From assembly GCA_902791745.1 (NCBI GenBank), contig CADAWZ010000002.1, forward strand, positions 1 through 48,571: a stretch of DNA of 48,571 nucleotides, in the 5' to 3' direction. Source of the DNA: an uncultured bacterium. GTDB lineage: Bacteria > Vulcanimicrobiota > CADAWZ01. The notes below the pieces were generated by a model. That model ran no database searches and was not told where the DNA came from. It was given only the letters and a program-made list of their open reading frames with translations. Of this stretch, positions 1,686-42,390 are shown in pieces. The position numbers were made by a program, and so were the translations under genes. Position 1 is the first letter of the stretch. Each line of letters starts with the position of its first letter.

Positions 1686-4600
1686 ATGAGCTTAAATAAT
1701 TCAAATAAAATATTTGAAATAAAAGCATTAAATATTACACCTGATAAATTCGCAGTAAAGACATCTGATGGACCACTAAATCTGCAATGGAATATGATTA
1801 CTAATGCTTATATATTTGATTTAAAAGGATATAGAAGCATATTAAAACCTATATTAATATTAAAATTTAAAACAGATAAAATAGGTGTTGGATTTTTATC
1901 TCTGCCAGCAGAAAAAATTGGAACAATTAAAATGGTTGCCGATGGCAAAATTTTAATGCGTATGAGATTATCAAAAATATCCGTTGACGGTAGTATAGAC
2001 CCTATTTTTATAGATGTAGTAAAAAAAATCTGTTCCAATTTTACTTGGACTTATATAGATGCTCCATTAAAAAATTTTATACAAAATGATTCAACTGATT
2101 TTCCAAATCTAAAAGAAGAAAGCGAAATAATAGAGTATTGTTCAAAAGTTGAAGAAGAACTTGAAGGTGCAAAAGAAGATGTATTCAATGATTCTGTAAA
2201 AGAATTACATACAAGTTCATCTCCAACAACAGAAAGAGAAAAATTCGAAATCGGTTCCGAAATAGACAATCAATATAAAGTAAAAAATATACTCTTTGGT
2301 GGTATGGGTATTGTATATGTAATAGATGATATGTTATCAGAAAAGCCAAAGACCTATGCACTAAAGACATTTAAAGATGAATTTATTTTTGATTCAACGG
2401 TTTGTAATCAATTCATCAAAGAAGCTGAAATTTGGACAAAATTAGGAAAGCATAAAAATATCGTCCAAGCAGAACGATTAATGTTAAGAGAAGGTCAACC
2501 TTACCTTTTTCTTGAGTTTATAGATGGTGAAGAACTCGAAGCTATCATTAAAAGAGAAAGACTTCCTATTTTAACAGCCATTGATTATTCTCTACAACTT
2601 TGTAATGGTATGATATATGCTTGGACATTGATGGGACTGATACACAGAGATTTAAAACCTGCAAACTGTTTTATAAATAAACAAAATGTATTAAAAATAT
2701 CTGATTTCGGTTTGGGAACAGCTTCATTTGCAAAAGAAAGTAATAGTGATGACAATTTAGGAAAAGCTGCAGTTGTAGGAACAGTTCCATATATGGCTCC
2801 AGAATTATTTATGGATAGCTCGCTTGCTTCCACACAAAGTGACATATATGCTTTTGGAATAATACTTTGTGAAATGTTAACTGGAATAAATCCATTTTTT
2901 GATGAAGATCCTTCAGAAATAATTGATCGCCATTTAAATTTAGAACCTTCACTTTTTGACTATGCAAATGACAATGAAGACATAACAGAAGAAATAGATT
3001 GCATATTTAAAAAATGTGTAGCAAAAGAAAGAGAAGAAAGATACAAAGATTTTGAAGAAATATATCAAGATCTCTCTGTTCTATATGAAGAATTATCAGG
3101 TGCAGAATTTAAAAAGACATCAAACGAAACTTTTTCAGAAGAAGACTATATAAAAAGAGGAGTATCTCTGAAACATTTAAAACATTATGCAGAAGCTATC
3201 AAAGTATTTGATGATGCAATTAAAATAAATCCAAGAAGTCCAGCAATTCTCCACAAAGGACAAACCCTTGGATTAATGAAAAATTATGATGAAGCAATAA
3301 AAGTTTTGGATGGCTTTATTGAAATGCACCCAAAATATTGGAGAGTATGGCTATCTAAAGGCGATGTTCTACGCATGGCCAAACGATATGATGAAGCATT
3401 AAAATGCATAGAAAAAGCAGAAAGTTTAACATCGGAACATGAAGATCTCCTTTCAATAAAAGGGCATTTAATGGGTGATTTAGGCAAAATTTCAGAAGCC
3501 ATTGCAATTTGTGAACAATCCCTTAAAATAAATAATCAAAAATATGAAAACTGGAATCTCCTCGGAGATTACTATATGCAACAAAAAAAATATGATTTTG
3601 CAAAAGATGCATATTCAGAGGCAAACGAATTAAACCCTCGTTTTGCAGAAGCTTGGACAGGAAAAGGATACAGTCTATTTTATTTGGGATTTTATAAAGA
3701 AGCAATAAATGCTTTTAAAAAATCAATTTCATTGGAAGCATCTAATATAGATGCAATAATTGGCATGGCACGATCTTATATTCACATAGGAGAAATAAAA
3801 CAAGCAAATAATTGTTATAGTAGAATATTTGAAAAAGGAAAAGTGCCATTAGAAGTAATTCTTGGAAAAGCATATATATTGGCAATAAGTGGAAATACAG
3901 AAGATGCAATAGAATTATTATCAAGATATATATCAAGATTTCCAGATGATTTAAGAATTAAATTAATTCTTTCAGAATTATACATGGAAGTTTCAAATCC
4001 AATTCTTGTAAAAACACTATTTCCAAATATAGACGACGAAAGTAGAATTGAAGCAATATTTTCAATCTCCTCAGATAATGAATTGAAATATTTGGAAAAA
4101 TTAGAACAAGAAATAGAAGATACTAAAAAAGTAGAAATAGACCAACTTTTAAAAGATTTAAATACATTTCTAATATATACATGTGATCTTGAATATGGTT
4201 CAAAAATTCTAAAAAAAATAATAGATCAAGATGAAAAAAATAGGCTCAAAGCTATGACCTATCTGTGTATTTTAGAAAAGTTACTTGGACACAATGAGTA
4301 CGCAGAAAAAATTTATTCAGACATATCATCTAAAAATCATAAAAATCAGCTAATAAACGACATTGGAAAAAGGCTATTTGCTGGCAAAAAAGATACAGGT
4401 CTATTCTACAACATGGAAATAAAAAAATTTGCTAAAACATTAGATGGAATGTTGATAGATGGTATAACTGAATATAAAGAGGGAAATTATCCAAAAGCTT
4501 TTACAATATTCCAATCTTGTGCTGAAAAATACCCTGAAGCTAAATCTTGTATTTTTTTTGCAAGTCAATTACTCGAACTAATGCATGACACCGTAAGAGC

Positions 4601-6353
4601 ATCGAGTTTATCTGAAGAATTTATAAAAGCCTGCCCAGAATCATTTGGTTTTTATAGACACAAAATATTACAAGATAAAAATAAACAAAATATATCAAGA
4701 ATTGAACTGTGGATAAAAAAAATAATCGGCACTATCCCATATTTTCTTGAACCATGGATTTACTATATAAATATATTAATGGAATTTGGACATAAGCAAA
4801 AAGCTCTATTGACAGCATTATTATTCCTTGATAAGTATATAGACAAAGTGCATGAGCACAAAGATTCGCTGGACTTTTTAAATATAAAAGGAGCATTAAA
4901 TTTTATTCTTGGGAGATATGAAGCTGGCAAAACTTACCATGCCTCTGTTCTATCATTAGATCCTTCAAATTACAATGCAATATTAGGAACTGCAGAATGT
5001 AATATGAAACTCGGCAAAAAATCAGAAGCCAAAGAAATGTTAAAGTCTGAAGTGGTAAAAGATAGTCCAATGGCTAAATATATATTGTCAAAAATTTTAA
5101 CTGATGAAAAAGATTATGATGAAGCCATAAAGATAACAGGAACAAATGACAATTTACCAACCCATACAATATCAGATGTGCTTTTGATTGGAAGAGCTGA
5201 AGCATTATATCAAAAAGGGGATTATCCTGAAGCAGAAGTATATATAGATTCGCTAAGGGGGCTTTATGAAAATCTTCCGTATCTAATTCAATATAAATAT
5301 CTGCTATCCAAAGGAATACCAATAAATACATATCTTCCACATAATGCCGAAAAAAGTACAAATTCGCACATTATGAATTTAATAGCAAATGATAAATATA
5401 AAAAAGGCAATCTATTAGATGCAGAAAAAGATTTTCTCAAAATTGCCTCTTATGATATTTTTGATAAAAATTCAAGAATAAAATTAGGTCTTATCTCATA
5501 TAAAAATAAAAATTATAATCAGGCAATAAAATATTTTAAACAAGCTCTGACATTGGATTCAATAAATCCTGTTCTGTGGACATTTTACGGAGCAACTTTC
5601 TGGAGCATGAAAGATAAAGAATCTGCTGAAAAAGCATTTGATAGTGCTATGATAATTCCAAGTGATTCAATTCCAACTTTGGTAAATTACAGCATGTATC
5701 TACTTGAAAAGGGGTGTATTATAGAAGCCCAACAATATGCTGAAAAAGCACTTAGACTTGACAACTCACAACATAATGCTTGGCTTGCAAGAGGTAGAAT
5801 TTGTAGAAAATATGGAAATTTAGAAGATGCATTGACAAGTGCAGAAAGTGCTTTAGCTAAAAATCAAGAAGATATAAGAGGATGGTTATTAAAAGGAGCC
5901 ATTCAACTTGAAATGAATGAAACTCAAGATGCAACTTATACATTTAGAAAAGCAGCAGAAATGGATAAAAATAATCCAATAGTTTGGTATAATTTGGGAG
6001 TTTTATCTTTAAGAGAGAGAAAATACGATTTAGCAAAATCAAATGCAGAACGAGCATTAAACGCCAAAAAAGATTTCTTTGAAGCACTTTATCTCTATTC
6101 AGTTTGTTTAGACCATATGAAAAGACAAGATGAATCAAAAAGATTTTTATATGAAGCAGAAAAATGCAATCTTGAAAAATTTTTAAGATACAAAAAAATA
6201 ACGGAGATAAAAAAGGATATAAAATATCCAATAAAAAGTATTGATACAATAGATGATCCATTTTTCATGGAAGAAAGTAGAACAAATGATTTTCAAAATA
6301 TATTTAGAATGATTGATTTTTCTCCTATTATCTGTAAAGAAAATGTATTATAA
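1686..6353 (+). CDS. Hanks-type Ser/Thr protein kinase with unassigned N-terminal domain and >1000-aa TPR solenoid
   Basis: Kinase motifs: G-loop FGGMGIVYV, YALKTF (VAIK lysine), HRDLKPANCF, DFGLG, PYMAPE. These are followed by dozens of 34-residue TPR-like units (for example YAEAIKVFDDAIKINPRSPAILHKGQTL). The first ~190 aa are unassigned. Confidence 0.9.
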   Translation: MSLNNSNKIFEIKALNITPDKFAVKTSDGPLNLQWNMITNAYIFDLKGYRSILKPILILKFKTDKIGVGFLSLPAEKIGTIKMVADGKILMRMRLSKISVDGSIDPIFIDVVKKICSNFTWTYIDAPLKNFIQNDSTDFPNLKEESEIIEYCSKVEEELEGAKEDVFNDSVKELHTSSSPTTEREKFEIGSEIDNQYKVKNILFGGMGIVYVIDDMLSEKPKTYALKTFKDEFIFDSTVCNQFIKEAEIWTKLGKHKNIVQAERLMLREGQPYLFLEFIDGEELEAIIKRERLPILTAIDYSLQLCNGMIYAWTLMGLIHRDLKPANCFINKQNVLKISDFGLGTASFAKESNSDDNLGKAAVVGTVPYMAPELFMDSSLASTQSDIYAFGIILCEMLTGINPFFDEDPSEIIDRHLNLEPSLFDYANDNEDITEEIDCIFKKCVAKEREERYKDFEEIYQDLSVLYEELSGAEFKKTSNETFSEEDYIKRGVSLKHLKHYAEAIKVFDDAIKINPRSPAILHKGQTLGLMKNYDEAIKVLDGFIEMHPKYWRVWLSKGDVLRMAKRYDEALKCIEKAESLTSEHEDLLSIKGHLMGDLGKISEAIAICEQSLKINNQKYENWNLLGDYYMQQKKYDFAKDAYSEANELNPRFAEAWTGKGYSLFYLGFYKEAINAFKKSISLEASNIDAIIGMARSYIHIGEIKQANNCYSRIFEKGKVPLEVILGKAYILAISGNTEDAIELLSRYISRFPDDLRIKLILSELYMEVSNPILVKTLFPNIDDESRIEAIFSISSDNELKYLEKLEQEIEDTKKVEIDQLLKDLNTFLIYTCDLEYGSKILKKIIDQDEKNRLKAMTYLCILEKLLGHNEYAEKIYSDISSKNHKNQLINDIGKRLFAGKKDTGLFYNMEIKKFAKTLDGMLIDGITEYKEGNYPKAFTIFQSCAEKYPEAKSCIFFASQLLELMHDTVRASSLSEEFIKACPESFGFYRHKILQDKNKQNISRIELWIKKIIGTIPYFLEPWIYYINILMEFGHKQKALLTALLFLDKYIDKVHEHKDSLDFLNIKGALNFILGRYEAGKTYHASVLSLDPSNYNAILGTAECNMKLGKKSEAKEMLKSEVVKDSPMAKYILSKILTDEKDYDEAIKITGTNDNLPTHTISDVLLIGRAEALYQKGDYPEAEVYIDSLRGLYENLPYLIQYKYLLSKGIPINTYLPHNAEKSTNSHIMNLIANDKYKKGNLLDAEKDFLKIASYDIFDKNSRIKLGLISYKNKNYNQAIKYFKQALTLDSINPVLWTFYGATFWSMKDKESAEKAFDSAMIIPSDSIPTLVNYSMYLLEKGCIIEAQQYAEKALRLDNSQHNAWLARGRICRKYGNLEDALTSAESALAKNQEDIRGWLLKGAIQLEMNETQDATYTFRKAAEMDKNNPIVWYNLGVLSLRERKYDLAKSNAERALNAKKDFFEALYLYSVCLDHMKRQDESKRFLYEAEKCNLEKFLRYKKITEIKKDIKYPIKSIDTIDDPFFMEESRTNDFQNIFRMIDFSPIICKENVL

Positions 6354-6370
6354 TGTTAACAAATTTGATA

Positions 6371-6398
6371 TTGAATTTTTGACATAATGTGGTATAAT
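6371..6398 (+). promoter_or_regulatory. Sigma-70-type promoter (TTGAAT-16 nt-TGgTATAAT)
   Basis: -35 at 6371-6376 and extended -10 at 6390-6398, about 40 nt upstream of the strong RBS GGGAGG of the 6440 gene. Confidence 0.45.
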
Positions 6399-6439
6399 AT
6401 CTCTAAATACTAAAGAAAATATACAAGGGAGGCAATATT

Positions 6440-10369: not shown

Positions 10370-13255
10370 ATGCCTCTTATAAAATGTAAAAAATGCGGAG
10401 CATTATTTCCGCAAGCTACGCCAAATTCGAGATGCAGTATATGCGGAGGAGAATTAACAGGCATAGTATCATCAAAAAAAGCAACAAGTCCAAATCCGTA
10501 TTCTCAAAAGCCCAAAAATCTTGAAAAAGCACCTGCTTTTGGAACAGAATCCATAAGAAGTGGGTATTTTAATCCATCAAGCGGAAGGTATGAAGAAAAA
10601 ATGACTCTTCCTGCTTCTGCTTTTTCATCCAAATTAACGCATAATAAAGAGAGAATACAGACAGAAATTCCTGTTGTAGAAATTCCACAAAAAACTATAG
10701 AAACTCCTAAACCTATAGAAAGAAAGCAAGCTGATAAAAAAGAAGTTATTGCTTCTCAAAAACAAGATCAGAATCAACCTAAAAAACAAGAAAAAAAACA
10801 AGAAAAAGAAAGCAAAAAAGAAGATAAAAAAGATAATAACATCATAATCCAAAATAGATACAAAATCATAAGACCTATAAAAAGAGGTGGAATGGGAGCT
10901 ATCTATGAGGTTCTCGATAAACGCTTACACAAAAACTGGGCATTGAAAGAAATGATGGAAAATTTTGACAATGAACAGGAATGTGAAGAAGCAAGAGAAA
11001 GATTTGAACGCGAAGCTACACTTTTAGCTTCTTTAACACATCCAAATCTTCCAAGAGTTATCGACTTTTTTGATGAAGACGGCAAATTCTATCTTGTTAT
11101 GGATTATATAGCAGGAAAAGATTTAAACGATATACTAAGAAAACAAGAAAATAGAAGATTACCTTTAGACCAAGTTTTTAATATAATTGCTGATATTTTA
11201 GGAATACTTGATTATCTTCACCATAGAAATCCACCTATTATATACAGAGATATAAAGCCTGGGAACATAATGGTTAGAACTGAAGATTCCAAAACATTTT
11301 TGATCGATTTTGGAATAGCTCGTTCTATTGCTCCAGAATCAACAGATCCAAAAACTGAAGTTGGAACAGTTGGTTATGCTCCTCCTGAGCAGTACACTGG
11401 TAATCCTATGCCATGTTCAGATTTATATGCTCTTGGAGCAACAATGCATGAATTAATTTCAGGTGTTCCTCCTAAAATTCCATTCCAATTTCAACCATTA
11501 AAAGAGATGATACCAAATCTCTCTGACACTGTGAATCGCCTTGTATTAAAAGCACTTGAATTAGACTATCATAAAAGATGGCAAACTGCTAAAGATATGC
11601 TTAATGCTGTAAAGGAGGTCATAGCAAATGAAGCTTATTATATGACCTCATCAAAAGCTAAAGTTATTATTGACAATCCAATTGAATTTAGTAAATTAAA
11701 AGAAAATAATTTACAATTGAGGGCAGATTCTCCAAGATTGGATTCCCCAAGATTGGATTCTCCAAGGTTAGATTCTCCAAGATTGGGAAATAAAAATCCT
11801 GAAATAATGCGTTTCGACCAACAGAATATTGTTCCATCTATTGGTGGTGTACAATTAAATCAGGTAAATAATCAGGAATTAAGTAATATAAAACAATTAC
11901 CAAATCTTCCTGATATTAAATTTCCTAATCCTTCAAATAACATTACCAATAATCAAGTTATTGAATTGAAGAAACCACATAATAACAATCAAGTATTTGA
12001 ACTTCAAAATTCACATAGTGCAATAAATCAATTTATAAGTAAAACTCAAAACAATTTGAGACTTGATTTATCTAAAAAATTTGCAAATTTGTCGTCATCT
12101 ATTGGTCTTGAATTTCCTGTTTTTGATCAAAACAATCCATTTCAATCAGATTCAAAACAATCATATGATTTAGGAAAATTAGTAGGAACTCAAAGTCAAA
12201 ATAATAATGACATAAAGAATTTATTTTCAGAAAATATAGAGCCTCCAAAAGTATCAGCTCCATATATACCAACAATAAAACAAAAAAAATCAACAGATTC
12301 AGATAACTTAAACAAAAAACCTGATATTAATTCAGAGAACGAAGCAATAGAAGGAATAAAAGAATATTGTAGTAAATTTAAAGATCCATTTATAAAATCT
12401 GAAAATGACTGCTTTATATCTGATTTTTTGTTCAATCCACAAGCAGGGACAATTTGTCTTACAGATAGAAAAGGCACTATACAAATAAAATCTTTAAATG
12501 ATCTAAAAACTTTAGCTACAGTAAGGACAACATTTAAGGGAATATCAACATTTGACTTCAGTTCAAATGGTTTATATTTTGCCTATAATTCTCAAAAATC
12601 TGAATGCACTGTAATGGATTCAAGAGCTTTAAGTGTAATAAAGCAATTTACTTTAAAAGATTGTAACATAATAAAAGTATTATTGCCTTCTGAACCTTAT
12701 GTCATTGTTGGTTGTGATGATGGTACAATAGTAAAATGTAACTACCTAAACCAAGAAAAAATAGAATTCAAATATAACAAACTTCCAATATCTGCCATGG
12801 CTGTAAGTATTGATGGAAAATTGTTATATACTGGTCACACAAATGGTATAATTCATTCTTGGAATATTGAAGAAAATTCAATAGTTGCAAAAACTCAATT
12901 AAATTCTGGAAAAATAAATGACTTATCTGTAGCACAAAATAATAAACTGCTTGTATCATGTGCAGATGATGGTGTTATCATACTTTGGAAATCAGATAGC
13001 TTATCTCCAATCAAAAAGATGTACGAAAAACAAACAGGTTCTGTATATTCAGTAAGTTATGCAACAAATAAGCCATATATATGCACAGTATCTCAAGATT
13101 GTTCAATAAGAATTTGGGATTTGATAACTGGAACAGTAAACATGCAAGCATATAAAAATGAAACAAGAATCAACAAAATAAGAATAAAATCTTATAATGA
13201 AAATACTTATATAGTAGTAGCTACAGATACAGCTATACTTCTTTGGAAAAAGTAA
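10370..13255 (+). CDS. Ser/Thr protein kinase: N-terminal zinc ribbon, kinase, N/Q/S-rich linker, C-terminal WD40 propeller
   Basis: Zinc ribbon CKKCGALF...CSICGG. Kinase motifs KRGGMGAIYEV, WALKEM, YRDIKPGNIM, DFGIAR, GYAPPEQ. WD40 signatures GHTNGIIHSWNI, CADDGVIILWK, SQDCSIRIWDL. Confidence 0.9.
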   Translation: MPLIKCKKCGALFPQATPNSRCSICGGELTGIVSSKKATSPNPYSQKPKNLEKAPAFGTESIRSGYFNPSSGRYEEKMTLPASAFSSKLTHNKERIQTEIPVVEIPQKTIETPKPIERKQADKKEVIASQKQDQNQPKKQEKKQEKESKKEDKKDNNIIIQNRYKIIRPIKRGGMGAIYEVLDKRLHKNWALKEMMENFDNEQECEEARERFEREATLLASLTHPNLPRVIDFFDEDGKFYLVMDYIAGKDLNDILRKQENRRLPLDQVFNIIADILGILDYLHHRNPPIIYRDIKPGNIMVRTEDSKTFLIDFGIARSIAPESTDPKTEVGTVGYAPPEQYTGNPMPCSDLYALGATMHELISGVPPKIPFQFQPLKEMIPNLSDTVNRLVLKALELDYHKRWQTAKDMLNAVKEVIANEAYYMTSSKAKVIIDNPIEFSKLKENNLQLRADSPRLDSPRLDSPRLDSPRLGNKNPEIMRFDQQNIVPSIGGVQLNQVNNQELSNIKQLPNLPDIKFPNPSNNITNNQVIELKKPHNNNQVFELQNSHSAINQFISKTQNNLRLDLSKKFANLSSSIGLEFPVFDQNNPFQSDSKQSYDLGKLVGTQSQNNNDIKNLFSENIEPPKVSAPYIPTIKQKKSTDSDNLNKKPDINSENEAIEGIKEYCSKFKDPFIKSENDCFISDFLFNPQAGTICLTDRKGTIQIKSLNDLKTLATVRTTFKGISTFDFSSNGLYFAYNSQKSECTVMDSRALSVIKQFTLKDCNIIKVLLPSEPYVIVGCDDGTIVKCNYLNQEKIEFKYNKLPISAMAVSIDGKLLYTGHTNGIIHSWNIEENSIVAKTQLNSGKINDLSVAQNNKLLVSCADDGVIILWKSDSLSPIKKMYEKQTGSVYSVSYATNKPYICTVSQDCSIRIWDLITGTVNMQAYKNETRINKIRIKSYNENTYIVVATDTAILLWKK
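11726..11785 (+). repeat. In-frame tandem repeat, 4 x 15 nt (DSPRL)4
   Basis: gattctccaagattg / gattccccaagattg / gattctccaaggtta / gattctccaagattg, inside the kinase linker. Confidence 0.95.
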
Positions 13256-13281: not shown

Positions 13282-13317
13282 AAAAAAGTAGTATGAATAT
13301 TTTCATGCTACTTTTTT
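13282..13317. terminator. Intrinsic terminator hairpin (A-tract / stem / T-tract)
   Basis: AAAAAAGTAGTATGAA-TATT-TTCATGCTACTTTTTT, downstream of the kinase gene. Confidence 0.7.
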
Positions 13318-13346
13318 ATATACAAATAAAGAAACATATTTTAAAT

Positions 13347-13390
13347 AAAAAAAGTAGTGCGAATATTTTTCACACTACTTTTATTTTTCT
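13347..13390. terminator. Second, related terminator hairpin
   Basis: AAAAAAAGTAGTGCGAATATTTTTCACACTACTTTTATTTTT. It shares the AAAAGTAGT...ACTACTTTT arms with the hairpin 65 nt upstream, and serves the convergent 13408 gene. Confidence 0.65.
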
Positions 13391-13407
13391 ATATCAAAAT
13401 AATGTTA

Positions 13408-14400
13408 TTATGGTTTGTGATAGAATCTTGGTCTCTTGCTTTGGCTTACATTACCATAAGAAACTACCTGAGTACCATCTTTATTTCTGTTGTTTGAACC
13501 TATCAATTTTCTTGCTCCTGGTTCAGAAACGATTTCAGTATGGTTTCCATTTGGTCCTGTGTAGAGATATACATCACCTGGTTGTGCCATACTTTGTGGA
13601 ACTTCTACCCAACCCTGTTGTTTCAAAGCAGCTTCAAGACCTACAACTGAATTGTAATGTCCTTGTAATTTGCCTGTATTCTGAAGAACTGAGCTTACAA
13701 AATCAGCACAGTCTTTTCTTGCATTTCCTGCGTCTTGGAAGTGAGGCATTACACCTTTTAAATCTCTTGCATTTATGCCTAAGAATCTTTTTGCATATTC
13801 TACAACTTCACTACCACTTGCACCACCTGAAGGAATACCATTTGCTCCAGCTGCTGGATAAGCACCACCGCCTACTGGTAATGCTCCACCAAAGCCACCG
13901 CCTACTGGCAATGCTCCACCAAAGCCACCACCTACTGATGGAAGACCCTGCATTCCCATATTAGGCATTCCCATAGGCATAGGCATACCCATGCCCATAC
14001 CATTCTGCTGCATCATCTGCTGCATCATCATCATTTGCATCATTTGCATCATCTGCATCATCATCTGCATCATCTGCAACATCTGGAAACTATTAACTTG
14101 ATTTCCAAACATTCCGCCCTGCTGCATACCAAAAAGCCCCTGCATTCCTGGCATAAAACCAAATCCCATATCAGGCATTCCTATTGCATTTGAGCCATTG
14201 AACATACTTGCAAACTGAGCTGGATTCATGAAGTTAAAAGATTCTACACTACCTGCAAATGAATCCATAGGCAACATAGATGGTATGCTAGACATCATTG
14301 AGCCCAATCCCATCATATTGCCAAGTCCCATCATATTGCCTATGCCCATATTTCCAAACATTGGCATAGATGACATATTAAAATTAATGTTGAAGTTCAT
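13408..14400 (-). CDS. Met/Gly/Gln-rich low-complexity protein with C-terminal NlpC/P60 (CHAP-like) cysteine hydrolase domain
   Basis: Start reassigned to the ATG at 14400 (GGAGGtattatATG), so MNFNINFNMSSMPMF.... The C-terminal ~130 aa has DCADFVSSVL (Cys231) and PGDVYLYTGPNGNHTEIV (His287), as in NlpC/P60. No signal peptide. Confidence 0.8.
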   Translation of the reverse strand: MNFNINFNMSSMPMFGNMGIGNMMGLGNMMGLGSMMSSIPSMLPMDSFAGSVESFNFMNPAQFASMFNGSNAIGMPDMGFGFMPGMQGLFGMQQGGMFGNQVNSFQMLQMMQMMMQMMQMMQMMMMQQMMQQNGMGMGMPMPMGMPNMGMQGLPSVGGGFGGALPVGGGFGGALPVGGGAYPAAGANGIPSGGASGSEVVEYAKRFLGINARDLKGVMPHFQDAGNARKDCADFVSSVLQNTGKLQGHYNSVVGLEAALKQQGWVEVPQSMAQPGDVYLYTGPNGNHTEIVSEPGARKLIGSNNRNKDGTQVVSYGNVSQSKRPRFYHKP

Positions 14401-14533
14401 ATAATACCTCCACCCAAATATATTATTTATATTATATATTATAATTTCAAAAAAATATATAAACAAAATGTTAATTTTTCTTTAACTATATTAATAATTA
14501 TAAAATTTATTAATATATTTTTTTTTAAAACTA

Positions 14534-20002: not shown

Positions 20003-20488
20003 TTGTTTAAAAATACAATAAAAATACTTATATTATTTTTATTTTCAATATCTGCTTTTTCAATAGCCTATGCAACACAAATAGATATGGGAAATGGATA
20101 TAAAATACAACTTCCGAATGGTTATGAAAAAGATGTAGCTCTTTCTTATGAGGGAACAGATGTATTCTCAAATAAAGAATGTAATATAACTTTTAATACC
20201 CGTAGAATGGGAAAATATGATAGTAAAGATATAAAAGTACAGTCTGCAAATGTAGAAAGACAATTAAAAACAAGCACTTTTAAAATCTTAAAAAATACAA
20301 TAGGACAAATAAATAATAATCCTATGTTCTGCATAAAATATTCCATGCCGTATTCAAAAGCAATTTGGTATCAATATGGAATAATTTCAGAAGATGTAAT
20401 GTTTATAGTCACTTGTACAACAACTGCAGACAAAGATAAAAAATATGAACAAGAATTTAATAAAATAGTAAATACTTTATCAAAATAA
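20003..20488 (+). CDS. Hypothetical secreted protein
   Basis: TTG start after GGGAGG. Signal peptide ILILFLFSISAFSIAYA. No confident family. Confidence 0.65.
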   Translation: MFKNTIKILILFLFSISAFSIAYATQIDMGNGYKIQLPNGYEKDVALSYEGTDVFSNKECNITFNTRRMGKYDSKDIKVQSANVERQLKTSTFKILKNTIGQINNNPMFCIKYSMPYSKAIWYQYGIISEDVMFIVTCTTTADKDKKYEQEFNKIVNTLSK

Positions 20489-22288: not shown

Positions 22289-22813
22289 TTATTTTCCAAA
22301 CATAGCAGGAGAAAAAACAAACATAATCACAGATTTTCCATAAATATCATAGTGAAATGAAATACCTTTTTTAGGATATATAGCTAACTTATCTGAATCT
22401 GGATATACATCTTTGGAAGTTACTTGAATAACTTTTTCAGGAACTCCCAGCATACCTTCTATCTGTCTTTTATCCATACCAACATGAATTCCCTTAGCCG
22501 TATGACAATCAAGTTTACCTATTTTATTACTCATTACACCAACATAGTGCATTTCTCCTGTATATCCTTGATATTGGATTATAAGACCATGTGAATTATA
22601 CTTAGCAATAACATCACCATTTTGAAGTTCTTTTCTAAAATCAGGATTTCCAAATGTATTTTGATATTTGAAAAAAGAATCTCCAATCGTCAATGGACCA
22701 ACAGATTTAGCAGGAACAACTTTTACATATTTTTGCTCAGATGAAAAAACAGCAATAGACATAAACAATACAAAAAATAAAACAAAAGATAAAATTTTTC
22801 CAATTTTGTTCAT
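22289..22813 (-). CDS. Hypothetical secreted protein
   Basis: ATG at 22813 preferred (AGGTGAttaaaatcATG; the track's GTG lies inside the RBS). Signal peptide ILSFVLFFVLFMSIAVFS. Confidence 0.65.
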   Translation of the reverse strand: MNKIGKILSFVLFFVLFMSIAVFSSEQKYVKVVPAKSVGPLTIGDSFFKYQNTFGNPDFRKELQNGDVIAKYNSHGLIIQYQGYTGEMHYVGVMSNKIGKLDCHTAKGIHVGMDKRQIEGMLGVPEKVIQVTSKDVYPDSDKLAIYPKKGISFHYDIYGKSVIMFVFSPAMFGK

Positions 22814-22846
22814 GATTTTAATCACCTGCCAAATTTTACTATAATT

Positions 22847-31629: not shown

Positions 31630-31697
31630 ACAAGTAATTAAATAAAAAAATGGGCTGTGAAAAATTTCACAGCCCATTTTTTTATTTAATTACTTGT
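31630..31697. terminator. Bidirectional terminator embedded in a 31-bp perfect-arm palindrome
   Basis: ACAAGTAATTAAATAAAAAAATGGGCTGTGA-AAAATT-TCACAGCCCATTTTTTTATTTAATTACTTGT. It overlaps the stop codon of the minus-strand gene. Confidence 0.85.
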
Positions 31698-33567
31698 TCT
31701 TCAATATCAAAATACTATTTTCATCATTTGTAAATTGTTCGTAATTAGATTTTAATATTTTATAATCCTCAGGAGAAATTTGATTTGTCTTTATCTCTGT
31801 TTTTGCAGAATATTCTATTTTATTTTCTACTTTATCATAATTTGATGTCACAGTAAACTCTCCAAATTTACCACTAAAAGTTCTTGACTCAGGAACAAAA
31901 ATTGCTTCAAGATTTTTTGGCAACTGTAAAATATACTTATATTCTGCTGTTCTATTATTTCCTAAAACATAGGGATATTCTCTTTCTGGAACTGTTGTAT
32001 CAAATCCTATGCTCGAAAATTTAAAAGGTGGAGGATTTAAATTCAACAAGAAATACTCATTTTGTTTTAATGCAAATTTATTACATTTCATTTTTATTTT
32101 CATTGAAACAGGAATTGAATAATCATCAATCTTTGAGCACTCAAAACTTTTAATTTCTGTTGATGGTGAAAATGCTTCTCCAACTGCATTTATATACTTC
32201 TTCAAATTCTGTCCTAAATTTACTAACAATGGCAATCTTGCTGAAGAATCAAAAGAACCCTGTTCAAGAAAATCCATTTCAACATCTGCCGATCCATCAT
32301 TATTCAATTCTGCAATTATACAACTATAAGAAGAATTTGGAATATCAAAATAAGGCTCTTGTTTTACAAGTCTACATTTATCACCAAGAAGAATCAAAGC
32401 CTCTGAATTTGCATCTACTTTTACATATCCTGTCTGACCAGCAAGATTTACTGTATCAAGAAGTCCCCATCTTCCACTTTCTTTTCTCACTGCAAGCATT
32501 ACTATATCAAATTGCTTTATTGTTGGAACATTTTTGTGAATAGGAGCATTTGAATTTCTTATCAAAGCTATTTCAGAATCAATACCAAGAGCCTTTAAAA
32601 GAGCCTTTAAAAGAGTAACTCTATCTTTTCCATCACCATATTTTGAAGCAAGAGTTTCAGTAGCATATCGAGGCTTATATGAACCCATTCCAAGTGATAT
32701 AGGTGTATATTTAATATCCTGATTTATAAAACGAAGGCAACTTTTTATTTTTTCATCTTTTGTCTTACATTTTGCTGTTATCTGATTTGCCATATTTTTT
32801 ATGGCTTCATTTTCATAATCTGTTGCTTCAATCACATTTTTTTTGAAAAAATGTGTTGCTTGGTACCAATCTTTGGCAGTAGTATATATTATATATTTTC
32901 CAATAGTCTCTGTAGGAGGTCTTTTACCTTCTGATTTTAATTTTGGAATATCTTTTTCATCAATGGTTATTGTTCTTCCACTTTTTGTTACTTTTGTATT
33001 TGTCTCATATAAAAGTTTTGCATTTGCAGGTTCAGTTATTGTAACTTTTTTTCTAAGTGTACTATCTGAAGTTTCAAACAATATAAGCCCACTATCATAT
33101 CCTTCTTCATTTTTTCTGTCAACTGTATAATGAAGGTATAATGTGCTGTTTGGCTCAACAGACGAGAAAGAATATACTCTATTTATAAAATCACCATACA
33201 TCAAAGCATTTGCCATAAATGTAGGAGTAACATCATTAATTCCAGCCTTTTCTATCGGCTCAAATGTACCATCAGCTTTATATGTGCCACCTTTTATAAA
33301 ATGTACCTCTGCTTTTCCTTTATCAATAAATATTGGATAGTCAGCATGTTCTTCTCTTCCACTTTGAGTTAAAATTCTTGTAACTCTCTCAGAAGATGAA
33401 TGTCTACTTCCATCTTCATTTATTCTTATATCATATCCATTATATAATATTACCGCATCTGCATCTTTATTTTTTATTTTTATATTTACAAGATCAGATA
33501 TATTATCTGCAAAACATGTTGCACTCAATAGTATTGAAAAGAGAAAAAGACATATTAATTTTTTCAT
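31690..33567 (-). CDS. Secreted DUF3857 / transglutaminase-like protein, catalytic Cys and His replaced (predicted inactive paralogue)
   Basis: Signal peptide LICLFLFSILLSATCFA. Same architecture as the upstream gene, but the core motif reads KYGDGKDRVTLLKALLKALGI (Gly where the Cys is expected). Confidence 0.7.
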   Translation of the reverse strand: MKKLICLFLFSILLSATCFADNISDLVNIKIKNKDADAVILYNGYDIRINEDGSRHSSSERVTRILTQSGREEHADYPIFIDKGKAEVHFIKGGTYKADGTFEPIEKAGINDVTPTFMANALMYGDFINRVYSFSSVEPNSTLYLHYTVDRKNEEGYDSGLILFETSDSTLRKKVTITEPANAKLLYETNTKVTKSGRTITIDEKDIPKLKSEGKRPPTETIGKYIIYTTAKDWYQATHFFKKNVIEATDYENEAIKNMANQITAKCKTKDEKIKSCLRFINQDIKYTPISLGMGSYKPRYATETLASKYGDGKDRVTLLKALLKALGIDSEIALIRNSNAPIHKNVPTIKQFDIVMLAVRKESGRWGLLDTVNLAGQTGYVKVDANSEALILLGDKCRLVKQEPYFDIPNSSYSCIIAELNNDGSADVEMDFLEQGSFDSSARLPLLVNLGQNLKKYINAVGEAFSPSTEIKSFECSKIDDYSIPVSMKIKMKCNKFALKQNEYFLLNLNPPPFKFSSIGFDTTVPEREYPYVLGNNRTAEYKYILQLPKNLEAIFVPESRTFSGKFGEFTVTSNYDKVENKIEYSAKTEIKTNQISPEDYKILKSNYEQFTNDENSILILKNK

Positions 33568-33584: not shown

Positions 33585-35537
33585 CTATATTTTTTCAAGA
33601 ATAATCATATATCTTTGATATTCTTTTAATTCAATTCCAAGCTGTTTCATTTCTTGGTATTTATCTTTTGATACATATCTTGTATTTTTAGCTTTTCTTC
33701 CATAGTATTTTATTGTTTTTCCATCTTCTGAAAGTGAACATTTTATATCAACTTCACCTTTTTTATCAATATTTGGAGGAAGTGATAAAATTCTATAATT
33801 ACTTGGAATTTCAAGAGTTCCCTCAATTATACATTCATCTGGGGTTCCCAAACTAATATCATACTGTCTCTCATCAGAGTCTGTAAGAGATTTTAATGCC
33901 TTTTTTACACTTGAATCAAATGGAAGATTTCTCTCTGGAAGTGGAACAAGTACAAATTTTCCTGCTTTTGTTCCATAATTTGGAGCAGTTGCTTTTACTG
34001 CCAATTTGAAAGGTGTATTTAAATCAGAAGGATCTGTACATTCTACATCATTTATTTCAATAGCTGGAGAAACAGTTTCAAAAACAGATGTCATTACTCT
34101 TTTAAATTGTTCAGTATTAAATCTTTGTTTGACATGCCTCAAATTCATTTCATAATCACCGCATGAATCAATAGAATATTCGTAATTAAGAGCTAAATCC
34201 TCATTCAAAATACCCTTTGTTCTAATTTTTCCTGCATTACTTGAAGGATTACATGGTGGCACTTTCATTATATCAGAACCATCTGCTGTTATTGGAAGAA
34301 CATATCTTTCACCTGCATAACTTGTTCCAAGTCCTGATGACAATTCAGTTGTTGGATCCATTATTATCTGTCTTTTGTCTTTTGTTGTTATTAAACAGAC
34401 TACATGGGCAAACAAAACTGTTGGAGAATCAGGTGATGTTTCAGTAGATGGATTGATCAATACATCACAACATTTTATTTTTGCTTCTCTCATCATTGTT
34501 GTCATTAAGAGTGCCTTATCTCTACAAACCCCATAACCTTTTTCAAATGTATATGGTGCTGGATGTGCTTCAATATATGCATTTTCGTCCATGGCTGAGC
34601 CCATGTATCTTATCTTTTGTGAAATAAATCTATGAATAGCAAGAATTTTTTCGTCTTCTGTATTACAATTTGCTATCAATTCTGCAACTTTCGCTCTTAT
34701 TGCTTTATCAGCTATGTATTTATCTCTATTCAATCCATAATAATATCTTGAAGCCTCTTTCCAATTTTTAAAAGTAGTAACAGATAGAGACAATGCAACA
34801 TCTGAAACATTGGGCATGACTGCTTCATCTTTAATTTGAGGAATATTTTCTTTTTCCCAAGAATAAATAGTTTTTTCACTATTTCCCTCTTTAGAAAATT
34901 TGACTTCTCCATTATTCACTTTAGTATATAAAGGAAAATCTGTAGGAGCAGTTATCTCAAAATATGAATGTAATACAGGAACTTTTAATTGAAAATACCA
35001 ATCAGTCAAATAATTGTCTTTTATAAGTCTTTTTGTTTTTGTTACGGTAACAGTTTCAACGGCCGCACCAACTGGTAATTCACCAATAACAGCTGTTTTT
35101 ACCCTCATAGAAGTCTCATATATATTCATTCGCTGGAGACCAGCTGAAGTACCGTCTTTTATGTCTTCTTGTGGAATTTCTTTCACTGTTCCATCTGGAA
35201 GATATATCTTTATTTTGATAGATTCTATATTTTGATATTTACTATCATAAGAAAATGTTTTTGTTCCAAATATTTTTTTACCAATATCAGTTAAAATCAT
35301 GGATAGATTATAAGAAACATCAGTATAATTTCCCTCTTTATCAAGGTCTATTTTTCCCACATCTTCCAATATTATATAAGACGCATCTGGATAATCCTTA
35401 GAATTTATTGATTTTATTTTCTCTTTTACATTGTATTCACTTGTATTTAAATAATCTGTTGAATCTTTAGCAAAGACCGAACAGGTTAAAAATAAAGCTA
35501 ATACAAAAGATAAAAAAACTTTAATTTTCAAATTCAT
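33585..35537 (-). CDS. Secreted DUF3857 / transglutaminase-like cysteine protease-fold protein (Cys-His-Asp intact)
   Basis: Signal peptide VFLSFVLALFLTCSVFA. Core GYGVCRDKALLMTTMMREAKI (Cys338, nt 34524-34526), then FAHVV and IMDPT. Confidence 0.75.
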   Translation of the reverse strand: MNLKIKVFLSFVLALFLTCSVFAKDSTDYLNTSEYNVKEKIKSINSKDYPDASYIILEDVGKIDLDKEGNYTDVSYNLSMILTDIGKKIFGTKTFSYDSKYQNIESIKIKIYLPDGTVKEIPQEDIKDGTSAGLQRMNIYETSMRVKTAVIGELPVGAAVETVTVTKTKRLIKDNYLTDWYFQLKVPVLHSYFEITAPTDFPLYTKVNNGEVKFSKEGNSEKTIYSWEKENIPQIKDEAVMPNVSDVALSLSVTTFKNWKEASRYYYGLNRDKYIADKAIRAKVAELIANCNTEDEKILAIHRFISQKIRYMGSAMDENAYIEAHPAPYTFEKGYGVCRDKALLMTTMMREAKIKCCDVLINPSTETSPDSPTVLFAHVVCLITTKDKRQIIMDPTTELSSGLGTSYAGERYVLPITADGSDIMKVPPCNPSSNAGKIRTKGILNEDLALNYEYSIDSCGDYEMNLRHVKQRFNTEQFKRVMTSVFETVSPAIEINDVECTDPSDLNTPFKLAVKATAPNYGTKAGKFVLVPLPERNLPFDSSVKKALKSLTDSDERQYDISLGTPDECIIEGTLEIPSNYRILSLPPNIDKKGEVDIKCSLSEDGKTIKYYGRKAKNTRYVSKDKYQEMKQLGIELKEYQRYMIILEKI

Positions 35538-36272: not shown

Positions 36273-36833
36273 ATGTTAAAAAAAATTTTAGGCATTGTTT
36301 TTATATTGTGTATTTTATCTATTTGCATATGTTATGCAGGTGGTTTACCACATGTCAAAATGATAATTGACAGTAAAAGTTACACTGGCTCAAACTCTGC
36401 AACATTGATAAACGGCATGATTTTTGTTCCTGCCAAAATAACTGCAGATAAATTGAAAATCAAATCATATGTTTCAAAAGAAAATGGAAAATCGAGAATC
36501 AAGTTTATTTCGAAAAAAAATACTGTAATTTGTTTTGTTGGTCAAAAACAAATAAATTTAAATGGAAGCAAAAGTTTTATACCATTAGCTCCAGTAATGA
36601 TTGATTCAAGAATTTATATTCCAGTAAGTCTTTTTGAAAATTACTTTGGAATCTCAAGTTCATATAATCCAAAGAAAAATTTCGTCAAATTGTTTTCAAA
36701 TATAAAACCCGAAAAAAAGAAAAAAGCAGATGACGATCCTGCAGGTATGATAAATACTCTTTTACAAGGTGGTTCTTCAACAGAAAAAGAAAAAGATGAC
36801 GATGATGATATTAATATTGATAATATAGAATAG
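36273..36833 (+). CDS. Secreted protein with copper-amine-oxidase-N-terminal-like (stalk) domain and acidic tail
   Basis: Signal peptide ILGIVFILCILSICICYA. Motifs ATLINGMIFVPAKITADKL and MIDSRIYIPVSLFENYFG are typical of that domain as I recall it. RBS GGAG. Confidence 0.55.
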   Translation: MLKKILGIVFILCILSICICYAGGLPHVKMIIDSKSYTGSNSATLINGMIFVPAKITADKLKIKSYVSKENGKSRIKFISKKNTVICFVGQKQINLNGSKSFIPLAPVMIDSRIYIPVSLFENYFGISSSYNPKKNFVKLFSNIKPEKKKKADDDPAGMINTLLQGGSSTEKEKDDDDDINIDNIE

Positions 36834-41033: not shown

Positions 41034-42318
41034 CATAAATTTCAACCTAAAAGGTGGACAAATATTATGATGGAATGGTGGGAATCACTTACTTTATTAC
41101 AAAAAATATTTGTAGGTTCTGCAATCCCTTCAAGTTTATTTATAATACTCTCATATACATTGTCATTTGATGTTGACGCTACTTTTGACAATTTTTTTGA
41201 CTTCAATATAGATGATCCACTTGGCATATTTAATTTGAGAGGATTTATGTCATTTTTATCTATAGGTGGTTTAACAGGTTATGGATTGACACTATCCTCC
41301 AATTTATCACATCTCATAGCTATAATAGGAGCATTAATATCAGGTGTAATAGCAGCAAAGGCAACAAGTTCTTTAACGAATTTTCTTATGAAAACAGATT
41401 CTAATGGAAATATAAAAACGGAAAATGCGATAGGACAACGTGGAGAAGTATATTTAACTATCCCAGCAAATGGAAAAGATCAAGGAAAAGTAAATGTTTT
41501 AGTACAAGGAAAATTAGTAGAATTCAATGCAATAACAAATAAAGGTGTTGAATTAAAAACAGGTGAAACAATAGCTGTTATAGATATAAAAAAAGACAAT
41601 GTTCTTGTTGTAGAATCAGATTCGAACTATCTAAAAGAACCTGATATTTTGGAGTGAAAAAAAGACTTTTACACAATAGGACAAAGGTGAAATAAAAGTT
41701 ATAAATTTCGACCAAAAAGGGGGCAAAAATATTATGATGGAATGGTGGGAAGCACTTACTTTGTTACAAAAAATTTTTGTAGGTTGTGCAGTACCTTCAA
41801 GTTTATTTATATTACTAACATTTGCATTATCTTGTATCACACTTGATGCTGAATTTCATCATGGTAATTTTGACCTCGATTTAGACGATCCATTCGGCAT
41901 ATTTAATTTAAGAGGATTTATGACATTTTTAGCTATAGGTGGAATAACAGGTTATGGATTAACACTATCCTCCAAGTTATCACCTCTCATAGCTATAGCA
42001 GGAGCATTAGGTGCAGGTTTAATAGCAGGAAAAACAACAACTGCATTAATGAACTATCTAATGAAAACAGATTCTAATGGAAATATAAAAACTGAAAATG
42101 CAATAGGAAAAAGAGGAGAAGTATATTTAACTATTCCAGCAAATGGAAAAGGACAAGGAAAAGTAAATGTTTTAGTACAAGGAAAATTAGTAGAATTTGA
42201 TGCTATAACTAATAAAGGTGTTGAGTTAAAAACAGGTGATACAATAGCTGTTATAGACATTAAAGAAGGCAATGTCCTTGTAGTTGAGTCTGATATAAAT
42301 TACATAAAAGAACCTGAT
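41034..42318 (+). repeat. Tandem direct duplication (~667-nt unit) comprising RBS plus an NfeD-like gene
   Basis: ataaatttcaacctaaaaggtggacaaatattatgatggaatggtggga (41034-) versus ataaatttcgaccaaaaagggggcaaaaatattatgatggaatggtggga (41701-). The encoded proteins are ~75-80% identical by eye and near-identical over the C-terminal 90 aa. Confidence 0.9.
41067..41657 (+). CDS. NfeD/YqiJ-like membrane protein, copy 1
   Basis: N-terminal TM segments plus a C-terminal OB-fold-like segment (GEVYLTIPANGKDQGKVNVLVQGKLVEFNAI...GETIAVIDI). Lies upstream of SPFH genes, as in yqiJ-yqiK and yuaF-floT. Confidence 0.7.
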   Translation: MMEWWESLTLLQKIFVGSAIPSSLFIILSYTLSFDVDATFDNFFDFNIDDPLGIFNLRGFMSFLSIGGLTGYGLTLSSNLSHLIAIIGALISGVIAAKATSSLTNFLMKTDSNGNIKTENAIGQRGEVYLTIPANGKDQGKVNVLVQGKLVEFNAITNKGVELKTGETIAVIDIKKDNVLVVESDSNYLKEPDILE

Positions 42319-42390
42319 ATTTTAAAAGGCTCTGAAACATCAGAGTCTGATGTAAATTATCTAAAAGAACCTGAAACTTTAAAGGAATAA
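41734..42390 (+). CDS. NfeD/YqiJ-like membrane protein, copy 2 (extended C-terminus)
   Basis: Paralogue of 41067..41657. The C-terminal peptide NYIKEPDIL is repeated as NYLKEPETL. Confidence 0.7.
   Translation: MMEWWEALTLLQKIFVGCAVPSSLFILLTFALSCITLDAEFHHGNFDLDLDDPFGIFNLRGFMTFLAIGGITGYGLTLSSKLSPLIAIAGALGAGLIAGKTTTALMNYLMKTDSNGNIKTENAIGKRGEVYLTIPANGKGQGKVNVLVQGKLVEFDAITNKGVELKTGDTIAVIDIKEGNVLVVESDINYIKEPDILKGSETSESDVNYLKEPETLKE

Follow-up and report, generated by a model that had tools for sequence, protein, structure and literature searches.

Results

The gene and its product

We analysed a 48,571-nucleotide stretch of the genome of an uncultured bacterium of the Vulcanimicrobiota (contig CADAWZ010000002.1; the whole stretch is called the window here) and, within it, a protein-coding gene at positions 13408-14400 of the minus strand. 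An original prediction, made by a model from the sequence alone, had described the product as an extremely methionine-rich, low-complexity domain fused to an NlpC/P60-type hydrolase lacking a signal peptide. We found that the gene product is a two-part murein hydrolase, in which a divergent NlpC/P60-CHAP domain follows a conserved, disordered, Met-rich module. All features of this gene described below lie on the minus strand.

According to the open reading frame (ORF) list and the translation, the gene is complete and monocistronic and encodes 330 amino acids (aa) plus a stop codon, with the start at ATG 14400-14398 and the stop at 13408-13410; homologues share the same start Met. The strong ribosome-binding site that had been claimed was read in the sequence as a GGAGG Shine-Dalgarno motif at 14407-14411, 6 nt 5' of the ATG. 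An in-frame TTG at 14466 was rejected as the start because the resulting extension overlaps the ribosome-binding site and is not conserved in relatives, indicating that ATG 14400 is the start. Upstream, a consensus scan found a sigma-70-like promoter match (TTGAAA-17-AATAAT, 14422-14450) agreeing at 10 of 12 positions, which is weak evidence; the number of promoter-type matches in this AT-rich region was about the same as in shuffled sequence. A terminator scan identified a terminator-like hairpin with a 14-bp stem followed by a T run at 13350-13382, 26 nt past the stop codon and between convergent genes. The gene also forms the local GC spike that had been described, with values of 0.42-0.46 within the gene versus 0.17-0.30 in the flanks. 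Two antisense ORFs, 14035-14193 (+) and 13293-13964 (+), encode His/Leu-rich sequence (HHLHHLHHH...) and are mirror artefacts of the ATG/CAG run rather than genes; another shadow ORF of this kind, internal to the gene, gave rise to a spurious '30-locus' cluster when neighbouring genes were compared.

The methionine-rich module

By our count, aa 1-160 contain 45 Met (28.1%), the same number that had been obtained by hand, and aa 196-330 contain only 2. The first 160 residues also hold 27 Gly (17%), 16 Gln (10%), 15 Asn (9%) and 14 Phe (9%), and only three charged residues, none of them Lys or Arg, occur in aa 1-195. The mean Met content of the other long ORFs in the window is 2.4%, and the peak number of Met per 40 residues is 22 in this ORF and at most 5 in every other ORF in all frames. 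The proposed tract of exclusively M, Q and L was recovered as MLQMMQMMMQMMQMMQMMMMQQMMQQ (aa 107-132, nt 14005-14082), together with the GM/FG/MP-rich flanks attributed to it. The two reported copies of GGGFGGALPV are encoded by a 30-nt tandem duplication with one mismatch (13873-13932), whose perfect register suggests a recent repeat expansion within the linker.

Among 5.8 billion protein clusters searched, we found 50 relatives, all with a Met/Gly/Gln-rich, charge-poor N-terminal part (12-28% Met and 10-44% Gly), which makes up about half of the protein in most of them; the Met-rich region is thus kept in homologues, as had been anticipated. Fusions with a glucosaminidase carry additional charges, which are located in the inserted domain. 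The possibility that the frame arose by an assembly or frameshift error, raised with the original prediction, was excluded by the occurrence of the same architecture in these 50 independent clusters and in the loci of a genome scan (see below), and by purifying selection. When the gene was compared with two relatives (L001 and L005), the ratio of nonsynonymous to synonymous substitution rates (dN/dS) was 0.11-0.22 in the Met-rich half, where dS is close to saturation, and 0.01-0.18 in the catalytic half. Locus GC ranged from 0.30 to 0.75, with clearly Met-rich members up to about 0.68; because such members span about 30-68% GC, the Met content is not explained by base composition. The Met-rich half is therefore a conserved, mostly disordered domain family with ordered motifs, not random low complexity.

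An alignment of 27 long-form modules (A4), from which the conservation figures of the short motifs are taken, revealed that the order and spacing of the elements are fixed: hNhNhN, D-x4-S...NP, GxGxxPG, GSMFGG, the Met/Gln helix, Q-N-G-(F/M)-G-G and a Gly-rich stretch. In the window protein, the first element is NFNINFN (aa 2-8; 14377-14397), an alternation of Asn and hydrophobic residues that appears strand-like and is found at or near the N-terminus of most members; homologue N-termini include MSININFNLGGGG, MNMNMNIGININ and MFNINLG. It is followed by LPMDSFAGSVESFNFMNP (aa 43-60; 14221-14274), which carries the pattern D-x4-S...F-x-NP(F/L) with D46 and S51 conserved at 90% or more, and by GFGFMPGMQG (aa 79-88; 14137-14166), in which G79, G81, P84 and G85 of the G-x-G-x-x-P-G motif are invariant and for which the consensus across members is GMGMVPGFGG. 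The last motif, GGMFG (aa 95-99; 14104-14118; conserved form GSMFGG), stands directly ahead of the helix.

The disorder proposed for the N-terminal half was borne out by two AlphaFold2 (AF2) runs, one with a full-length alignment of 44 sequences and one with a module-only alignment. The exception was a helix at aa 104-133 (14002-14091), which includes the tract aa 107-132 and had a predicted local distance difference test (pLDDT) score of 66-82. A hidden fold in the module was rejected, as the module-only run yielded this helix and, in addition, only a weak short helix at aa 60-67. Within the main helix, M110, M111, M113 and M120 are at least 90% Met; Gln is conserved at Q109 (84%), Q112 (89%) and Q119 (50%) and is also frequent at positions 116, 119 and 122/123. 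The 3-4-3 spacing of these Gln residues places them in one narrow, heptad-like stripe on an otherwise Met-coated helix. The hydrophobic moment of the helix was above that of composition-matched shuffles in 70% of the distinct sequences (mean z 1.35), a result that is supportive only, because the sequences are related. The helix spans about 21 residues in most members (range 21-30) and is bounded by N-P and G-G. In divergent members, Leu, Ile and Val replace Met and the hydrophobic pattern is kept (for example, YLIGMLMGLMVG and LIMKMMMLMMVLIL); these helices, for instance YLIGMLMGLMVG, appear more like transmembrane (TM) segments. The helix is followed by a tether (aa 134-195; 13816-14001; pLDDT <50) that is GM/MP-rich and then Gly-rich and that includes the tandem duplication; the length of the Gly-rich stretch differs among homologues.

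Such a composition calls to mind other flexible, Met-containing and Gly-rich, uncharged segments, namely the 'methionine bristles' of SRP54/Ffh, the (GGM)4M tail of GroEL, the GGMP repeats of Hsp70, Pbp1/ataxin-2 and the GLFG nucleoporins, and GGMP- and GLFG-like repeats literally occur in members of the module family. None of these segments is known to stand N-terminally on a wall hydrolase, and none carries the ordered motifs of the module. Like the GLFG repeats, or like the Pbp1 Met-rich domain, whose assemblies dissolve on Met oxidation, the module could be a cohesive low-complexity domain. By forming a condensate or gel it would concentrate the hydrolases, sequester them or switch them off, with export achieved otherwise. 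Its nearly charge-free composition rich in Met, Gly, Gln, Asn and Phe, its predicted disorder, the GLFG-like and GGMP-like repeats, the variable length and recent tandem duplication of the repeat region, and the existence of a protein that consists of the module only (P0067) all fit this possibility. Set against it, however, the fixed motif order, the invariant residues and the conserved spacing suggest specific binding more than bulk cohesion, and cohesion would leave the route of the enzymes to peptidoglycan unexplained. We consider it decidedly improbable.

Cysteine occurs no more than 15 residues past the helix in 17 of 55 module proteins, and CxC or CxxC occurs in the module region of 17 of 55 (for example, SGCGCQ and GGCGCGGG); the Cys-bearing homologues include P0005-P0007, P0016, P0021/22, P0025/26, P0036/37 and P0040-46. 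Metal binding, disulfides and lipidation are possibilities for these residues. A lipobox just past the helix was rejected as a general feature, since only 17 of 55 members have a Cys there and the window protein has none.

The original prediction had further proposed that the Met-rich domain binds Cu(I)/Ag(I) or senses Met oxidation and thereby gates the hydrolase. Cu(I) binding at Met-rich sites and oxidation sensitivity of Met-rich domains are well documented in other proteins, the Met density here is very high, with four helix positions at least 90% Met, and the chemistry of the CxC/CxxC motifs in 17 of 55 homologues is compatible with Cu(I). However, neither the 48-kb window nor the Pfam-annotated loci of relatives showed any cop/cus/pco or Msr genes, and the replacement of Met by Leu, Ile or Val in divergent helices also speaks against gating of this kind. 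In addition, aa 1-195 of the window protein contain neither Cys nor His, the family spans anaerobic rumen-associated organisms and metagenome-assembled genomes (MAGs) from other sources, and the module is tied to wall enzymes rather than to metal proteins. Met-rich copper proteins such as CusF, PcoC and CueO carry MxxM/MxM clusters, often together with His, are exported by Sec or Tat and are encoded in metal operons; they share Met clusters with the module, which lacks an export signal, His and nearby copper genes. Nothing that we observed pointed to such gating, and we regard it as the least probable of the readings considered here. A 'Cu_amine_oxidN1' match at 36273-36833 is the name of a structural domain and does not denote copper homeostasis.

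The catalytic domain

The C-terminal part, aa 196-330 (13411-13815), was identified as a papain-fold domain of the NlpC/P60-CHAP type using AF2 and Foldseek. Block-mean pLDDT values over this region were mostly 87-97, with dips to 69 (aa 221-230) and 80 (aa 301-310). The best 38 Foldseek matches in the PDB were all NlpC/P60 or CHAP-type chains, with probabilities of 0.89-1.0 and target TM-scores mostly of 0.35-0.64; they included LytE, CwlO, MepS, a Thermus thermophilus endopeptidase, CHAP endolysins, Tse1/Tae1, Tae3 and the non-catalytic RipD. The assignment to the NlpC/P60-CHAP enzymes was therefore upheld for the fold but not at the level of a Pfam match, as the scores lay below the curated cut-offs (Amidase_6, 22.6 bits versus 23.2; CHAP, 20.1 versus 26). 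An NCBIfam search of the protein gave no match, and a family profile gave none against PDB sequences even at an expectation value (E) of <=10.

Both of the residues singled out in the prediction, Cys231 (DCADFV) and His287 (GNHTEIV), are present and are invariant in 44 aligned homologues. Cys231 (codon 13708-13710; motif NNCADFVSS) is the predicted nucleophile, and His287 (codon 13540-13542; motif GHTE(L/I)V) is the predicted general base. Asn303 (IGSNN; codon 13492-13494), which is also invariant and lies 16 residues past the His, is a candidate third residue of the triad; in CHAP domains, the Asn of the E-x-N motif is spaced likewise, about 16 residues beyond the His. The turn G275-D276-V277 is invariant in the homologues as well. 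As in the NlpC/P60-CHAP hydrolases of clan Peptidase_CA (PF00877, PF05257, PF05382 Amidase_5 and PF12671 Amidase_6), the C-terminal 135 aa adopt a papain-like fold in the model, in which the first long helix carries the Cys and the beta-sheet carries the His. On the strength of the predicted structure, aa 196-330 belong to the papain-fold murein amidase/endopeptidase superfamily, as a divergent subfamily that is largely restricted to one lineage and occurs mainly in genomes labelled Eremiobacterota. By analogy, the enzyme would cut peptidoglycan stem peptides or the MurNAc-L-Ala amide bond. Unlike known NlpC/P60-CHAP enzymes, the protein has no signal peptide, lipobox, LysM or SH3b domain, or coiled-coil partner.

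Enzymes fused to the module and their distribution

The module is not confined to this amidase family. Always in the N-terminal position, it precedes at least six other domain types that score above the Pfam cut-off: CHAP, VanY, Peptidase_M15_4, the SLT lytic transglycosylase, glucosaminidase (either alone or followed by an amidase in the same protein) and canonical NLPC_P60. A 3D/MltA-like domain without a Pfam match and a papain-like Cys/His domain were read by eye behind the module, a DUF1521-like GDPH domain was found below the threshold (E 0.001), and an HExxH protein (P0071) was assigned from its sequence motif only. One 77-kb contig encodes two module proteins of differing enzyme class, and two JGI contigs encode two module proteins each. 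A C-terminal domain with the motif WGDPH follows the module in P0056 and at the metagenome loci L068, L069, L072, L073 and L074, one with a sub-threshold match to DUF1521, the Ca2+-dependent self-cleaving domain of rhizobial type III effectors; these fusions indicate that the module is not confined strictly to peptidoglycan hydrolases. In P0071 and in the tandem paralogues L035:2604-4502 and 4702-6411 (+), a Lys/Glu-rich coiled coil of about 200 residues lies between the module and the catalytic domain.

Scanning one genome per GTDB species yielded 57 loci of the catalytic family, and Met-rich N-terminal ORFs were recovered in most of them. About 10 of the 57 had a different N-terminus on the same catalytic family, such as a predicted TM anchor (L044) or Gln-rich coiled coils (L027, L034 and L058). 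In L047 and L052, two PG_binding_1-like repeats, read by eye, replace the Met-rich module; these proteins come from high-GC MAGs labelled Enterobacteriaceae and Deltaproteobacteria, have no signal peptide and may be secreted effectors in other phyla. The taxon label was Eremiobacterota, Vulcanimicrobiota or Xenobia for 36 of the 57 loci, and the NCBI labels of several MAGs (Burkholderiales, Synergistia and Bacillota) appear to clash with the gene content and may be misassignments. Several genomes contain three or four paralogues, and tandem paralogues occur in L019 and L035. The sources were anaerobic rumen-associated organisms and MAGs of other origin.

A HMMER search with the module profile found only 31 proteins at E<=1e-3 among 1.84 billion representative proteins, and three of the weakest of these resemble unrelated low complexity. 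P0076 and P0077, which by eye are SPFH-type proteins with Q/M-rich stretches, match the module profile weakly, probably through composition alone. A degenerate DNA pattern for GMGMVPGFG added 10 further metagenome loci. None of the 27 modules matched a Pfam family even at E<=10. The view that no family with this architecture had been described was strengthened: the module has no Pfam or NCBIfam match, and full-text literature searches (Met-rich combined with hydrolase, autolysin, NlpC or CHAP; MMQMMQMM; Eremiobacterota or Xenobia) gave no paper on it. In a systematic survey of autolysin architectures, the words 'methionine', 'low complexity' and 'signal peptide' are absent from the text (PMC8051824). 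Murein hydrolases of modular build are familiar, and the catalytic domain represents a new subfamily within an established superfamily. The presence of one module on many wall enzymes, in labelled sources that belong mostly to one phylum, favours a role in targeting, export or regulation over the sensing of chemistry.

Export signals

As had been predicted, the protein has no signal peptide: aa 1-195 contain no Lys or Arg, no Cys precedes C231, and the Kyte-Doolittle maximum for a 19-mer is 1.03. A classical TM segment or signal anchor was rejected on the basis of this maximum and of the summed Hessa-scale values of the helix, which were +5 to +15 kcal/mol for the best 19-mer. Wimley-White octanol sums of the helix were mostly -2 to -9 kcal/mol. 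Taken together, the two scales predict a helix that is interface-active and not a stable TM segment. Canonical Sec signals were found in other ORFs of the window, at 31690-33567 (-), 33585-35537 (-), 36273-36833 (+), 22289-22825 (-) and 20003-20488 (+), and a PBP4-like peptidase of a relative also has a Sec signal peptide. The one representative of the phylum in culture has a diderm envelope and thin peptidoglycan (PMC9758169), which places the substrates of these enzymes beyond the cytoplasmic membrane.

In the absence of an export signal of any recognised type, the enzyme could be a cytoplasmic, LytA-like autolysin that the module keeps inert or bound until the membrane is damaged or a sibling cell lyses. 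Hydrolases without a signal that depend on lysis or a holin have precedents in LytA and in phage endolysins. However, VanY-type carboxypeptidases and lytic transglycosylases share the module, and a diderm would hardly grow if all of these enzymes were cytoplasmic; moreover, neither holin-like neighbours nor viral relatives were found. We therefore regard release by lysis as very unlikely.

Genomic context

The gene is flanked on one side by a convergent gene encoding zinc-ribbon, Ser/Thr kinase and WD40 domains and on the other by a divergent rpmB; nucleoside-phosphorylase genes nearby were read as deoA, deoD and deoB, and the remainder of the window is housekeeping. Synteny with the rumen MAG RUG13580 (L005) extends over at least 12 kb and preserves the place between the Ser/Thr kinase gene and rpmB/deoA, and the bovine-metagenome contig L001 also resembles the window. 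The source organism is thus a low-GC relative of a rumen MAG, probably of the Candidatus Xenobia / Eremiobacterota (Vulcanimicrobiota) lineage. The gene of one relative follows genes read as cdaA, cdaR and glmM. The annotated loci of relatives showed no secretion-system, holin or flagellar genes. An origin as a phage endolysin was rejected, as no relative was present in 2.9 million viral contigs and the context is chromosomal and housekeeping; the single PHROG match was marginal (E 0.003, unknown function). A FlgJ-type rod-binding domain (PF10135), an idea prompted by the glucosaminidase fusions and by the M/Q/L-rich helix of FlgJ, was likewise rejected, since 0 of 27 modules matched at E<=10 and flagellar genes were unseen.

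An all-against-all comparison of neighbours at 60 loci did not support a conserved operon partner: only one neighbour was recurrent, and it is missing from the window. This neighbour is helical, 126-150 aa in length and devoid of a signal peptide, and at 8 of the 57 loci its gene comes immediately after that of the hydrolase; it has the motif SAPVDxxNPxFxSLLxAL and no Pfam or PHROG match. An example is L004:11061-11483 (+), and others are found at L006, L009, L011, L014, L021, L038, L060 and L075-L077. Its family comprises 30 clusters, the named members of which are all Eremiobacterota. In L078, it follows an unrelated Gly/Ala-rich protein of 448 aa, and its linkage to the hydrolase is thus not strict. 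It could be a chaperone, an inhibitor or a regulator.

The combination of a single module with many enzymes could also mean that the module is a shared delivery or trafficking domain of antibacterial or predatory effectors, with the enzymes attacking the peptidoglycan of other cells; a specialised secretion system would recognise the module, or the module would thread a target porin in the manner of a colicin/pesticin translocation domain. One module before many signal-less lytic domains is the classic pattern of an effector family, and the shared trafficking domain typical of polymorphic effectors has its parallel here, the same module preceding at least seven types of catalytic domain. The type VI amidases Tse1/Tae1 and Tae3 are among the Foldseek matches, the fusion partners include the HExxH protein and the DUF1521-like GDPH proteins, the helical protein downstream in 8 of 57 loci is a possible chaperone or immunity protein, and members of a sister family have been suggested to live as predators (PMC9259500). 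Nevertheless, no immunity-like gene was seen adjoining the window gene or its close relatives, and secretion genes were unseen in the annotated loci. Almost every payload with a recognisable domain is directed at peptidoglycan, with nucleases, lipases and deaminases unseen, and stable synteny among housekeeping genes together with purifying selection is not what this explanation would lead one to expect. The helical protein has no signal peptide, so it would not protect the periplasm, and it also stands beside an unrelated gene. On balance, we consider an effector role unlikely, although it is the main rival of the reading favoured below.

Several other features of the window were recorded. 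Two genes encode eukaryote-like Ser/Thr kinases: 10370-13255 (+), a 961-aa protein with zinc-ribbon, kinase and WD40 domains and a fourfold DSPRL tandem repeat at 11726-11785, which is the convergent neighbour of the hydrolase gene and is kept as such in L001 and L005, and 1686-6353 (+), a 1555-aa protein with a kinase domain and many TPR repeats. The genes at 31690-33567 (-) and 33585-35537 (-) are tandem paralogues encoding secreted proteins with a DUF3857 and transglutaminase-like core, the first also with DUF3858. Two near-duplicate membrane proteins, 41067-41657 (+) and 41734-42390 (+), both start with MMEWWE, and the one that was scanned has no Pfam match; they are followed by two SPFH/Band_7 proteins, 42415-42975 (+) and 43069-44760 (+), an arrangement that in our reading resembles an NfeD-like/SPFH module. 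A DpnII-type restriction endonuclease gene at 45485-46342 (-) overlaps 46329-47168 (-), which probably encodes the cognate methyltransferase.

Discussion

The reading that we tentatively favour, although we would put it slightly below an even chance, is that the module is an unconventional export or anchoring leader for wall enzymes that replaces a Sec/Tat signal. We infer this role and the membrane activity of the helix from the combination of a conserved module, wall-directed enzymes and missing export signals. The module would convey the wall enzymes of the lineage beyond the cytoplasmic membrane in place of a Sec/Tat signal; the weakly hydrophobic Met/Gln helix would act on the membrane or oligomerise, a partner such as a translocase or a regulator would dock at the short linear motifs, and the Gly-rich stretch would be a flexible tether by which the catalytic domain reaches the thin peptidoglycan. 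With Met instead of Leu, the helix would be suited to transient contact with membranes or proteins and too weak for a permanent, Sec-inserted anchor, and such weakness would allow regulated retention and release.

A more specific form of this proposal is that the module is a new, lineage-specific signal for export or self-translocation, whose helix would oligomerise in, or cross, the cytoplasmic membrane without a classical Sec/Tat signal peptide. We regard this as a substantial possibility, though less likely than not. If it applies, Eremiobacteria would use the module to deliver and regulate their wall hydrolases and a few other extracytoplasmic proteins.

Several known systems share the idea of a hydrolase that reaches the wall by a dedicated, regulated route, among them the signal-anchor-release (SAR) endolysins, LytA, Tat-exported amidases and the SecA2-dependent p60/NamA. 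The SAR endolysins, like the protein described here, possess a weakly hydrophobic helix. SAR domains are located at the extreme N-terminus, have a positive flank, are rich in Gly, Ala and Ser, and are inserted by Sec, holding the enzyme at the membrane until it is released. In contrast, the helix of the window protein lies at aa 104-133, has uncharged flanks, is Met/Gln-rich and is preceded by conserved linear motifs, and no phage context was found. The FtsEX-regulated hydrolases PcsB, CwlO, RipC and EnvC have the same layout of an N-terminal helix, a disordered linker and a C-terminal CHAP or NlpC/P60 domain, and the layout of the L035 paralogues, with their inserted coiled coil, recalls PcsB/CwlO. 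However, proteins of the PcsB/CwlO type have Sec signals and long canonical coiled coils, whereas the protein described here has a single Met/Gln helix, and an FtsEX gene was seen beside no member.

The LXG, MIX/FIX and XVIPCD domains (the last on type IV secretion effectors of Xanthomonas) are likewise single noncatalytic modules found on many lytic domains that lack a Sec signal. Colicin translocation domains are Gly/Asn-rich and disordered and contain short docking motifs, and the module is comparable to those of colicins and pesticin in its Gly/Asn-rich, disordered sequence with short embedded motifs. Unlike the genes for polymorphic effectors, those described here are chromosomal, syntenic and under purifying selection, and the module has no sequence similarity to the effector domains.

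A number of observations weigh against an export or anchoring leader. On the Hessa sums given above, the helix is too polar for Sec insertion, and in the long form it lies about 100 residues from the N-terminus without a positive flank, unlike signal anchors and SAR domains. No translocase, holin or other partner gene was linked to the module in any of the examined loci. Some members of the same catalytic family have neither the module nor a signal peptide (L047 and L052), which fits the use of these enzymes as secreted toxins elsewhere, and a few module proteins are not obviously cell-wall enzymes, namely P0056, the HExxH protein P0071, P0075 and the module-only P0067. Cohesion, release by lysis and gating by copper or oxidation have less support than an export or anchoring leader, and some of these alternatives could hold at the same time.

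The means by which bacteria bring their wall-cutting enzymes out of the cell and hold them in check are a central issue of envelope biology with relevance to antibiotics, and the known routes of autolysin control are Sec, Tat, SecA2, holins and FtsEX. In this phylum, of which hardly any member has been cultured, murein hydrolases of many classes have exchanged the usual signal peptide for one shared, conserved and disordered module built on Met. If the export or anchoring role is correct, the module would represent a new type of targeting signal and be among the clearest functional sequence codes based on Met; a cohesive or regulatory role would instead make it a bacterial parallel, tied to the envelope, to the low-complexity domains of eukaryotes. 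Either way, the work defines a domain family without a match in the versions of Pfam and NCBIfam searched and a divergent NlpC/P60-CHAP subfamily, and it provides a simple sequence marker by which the wall toolkit of the Eremiobacterota can be recognised in metagenomes.

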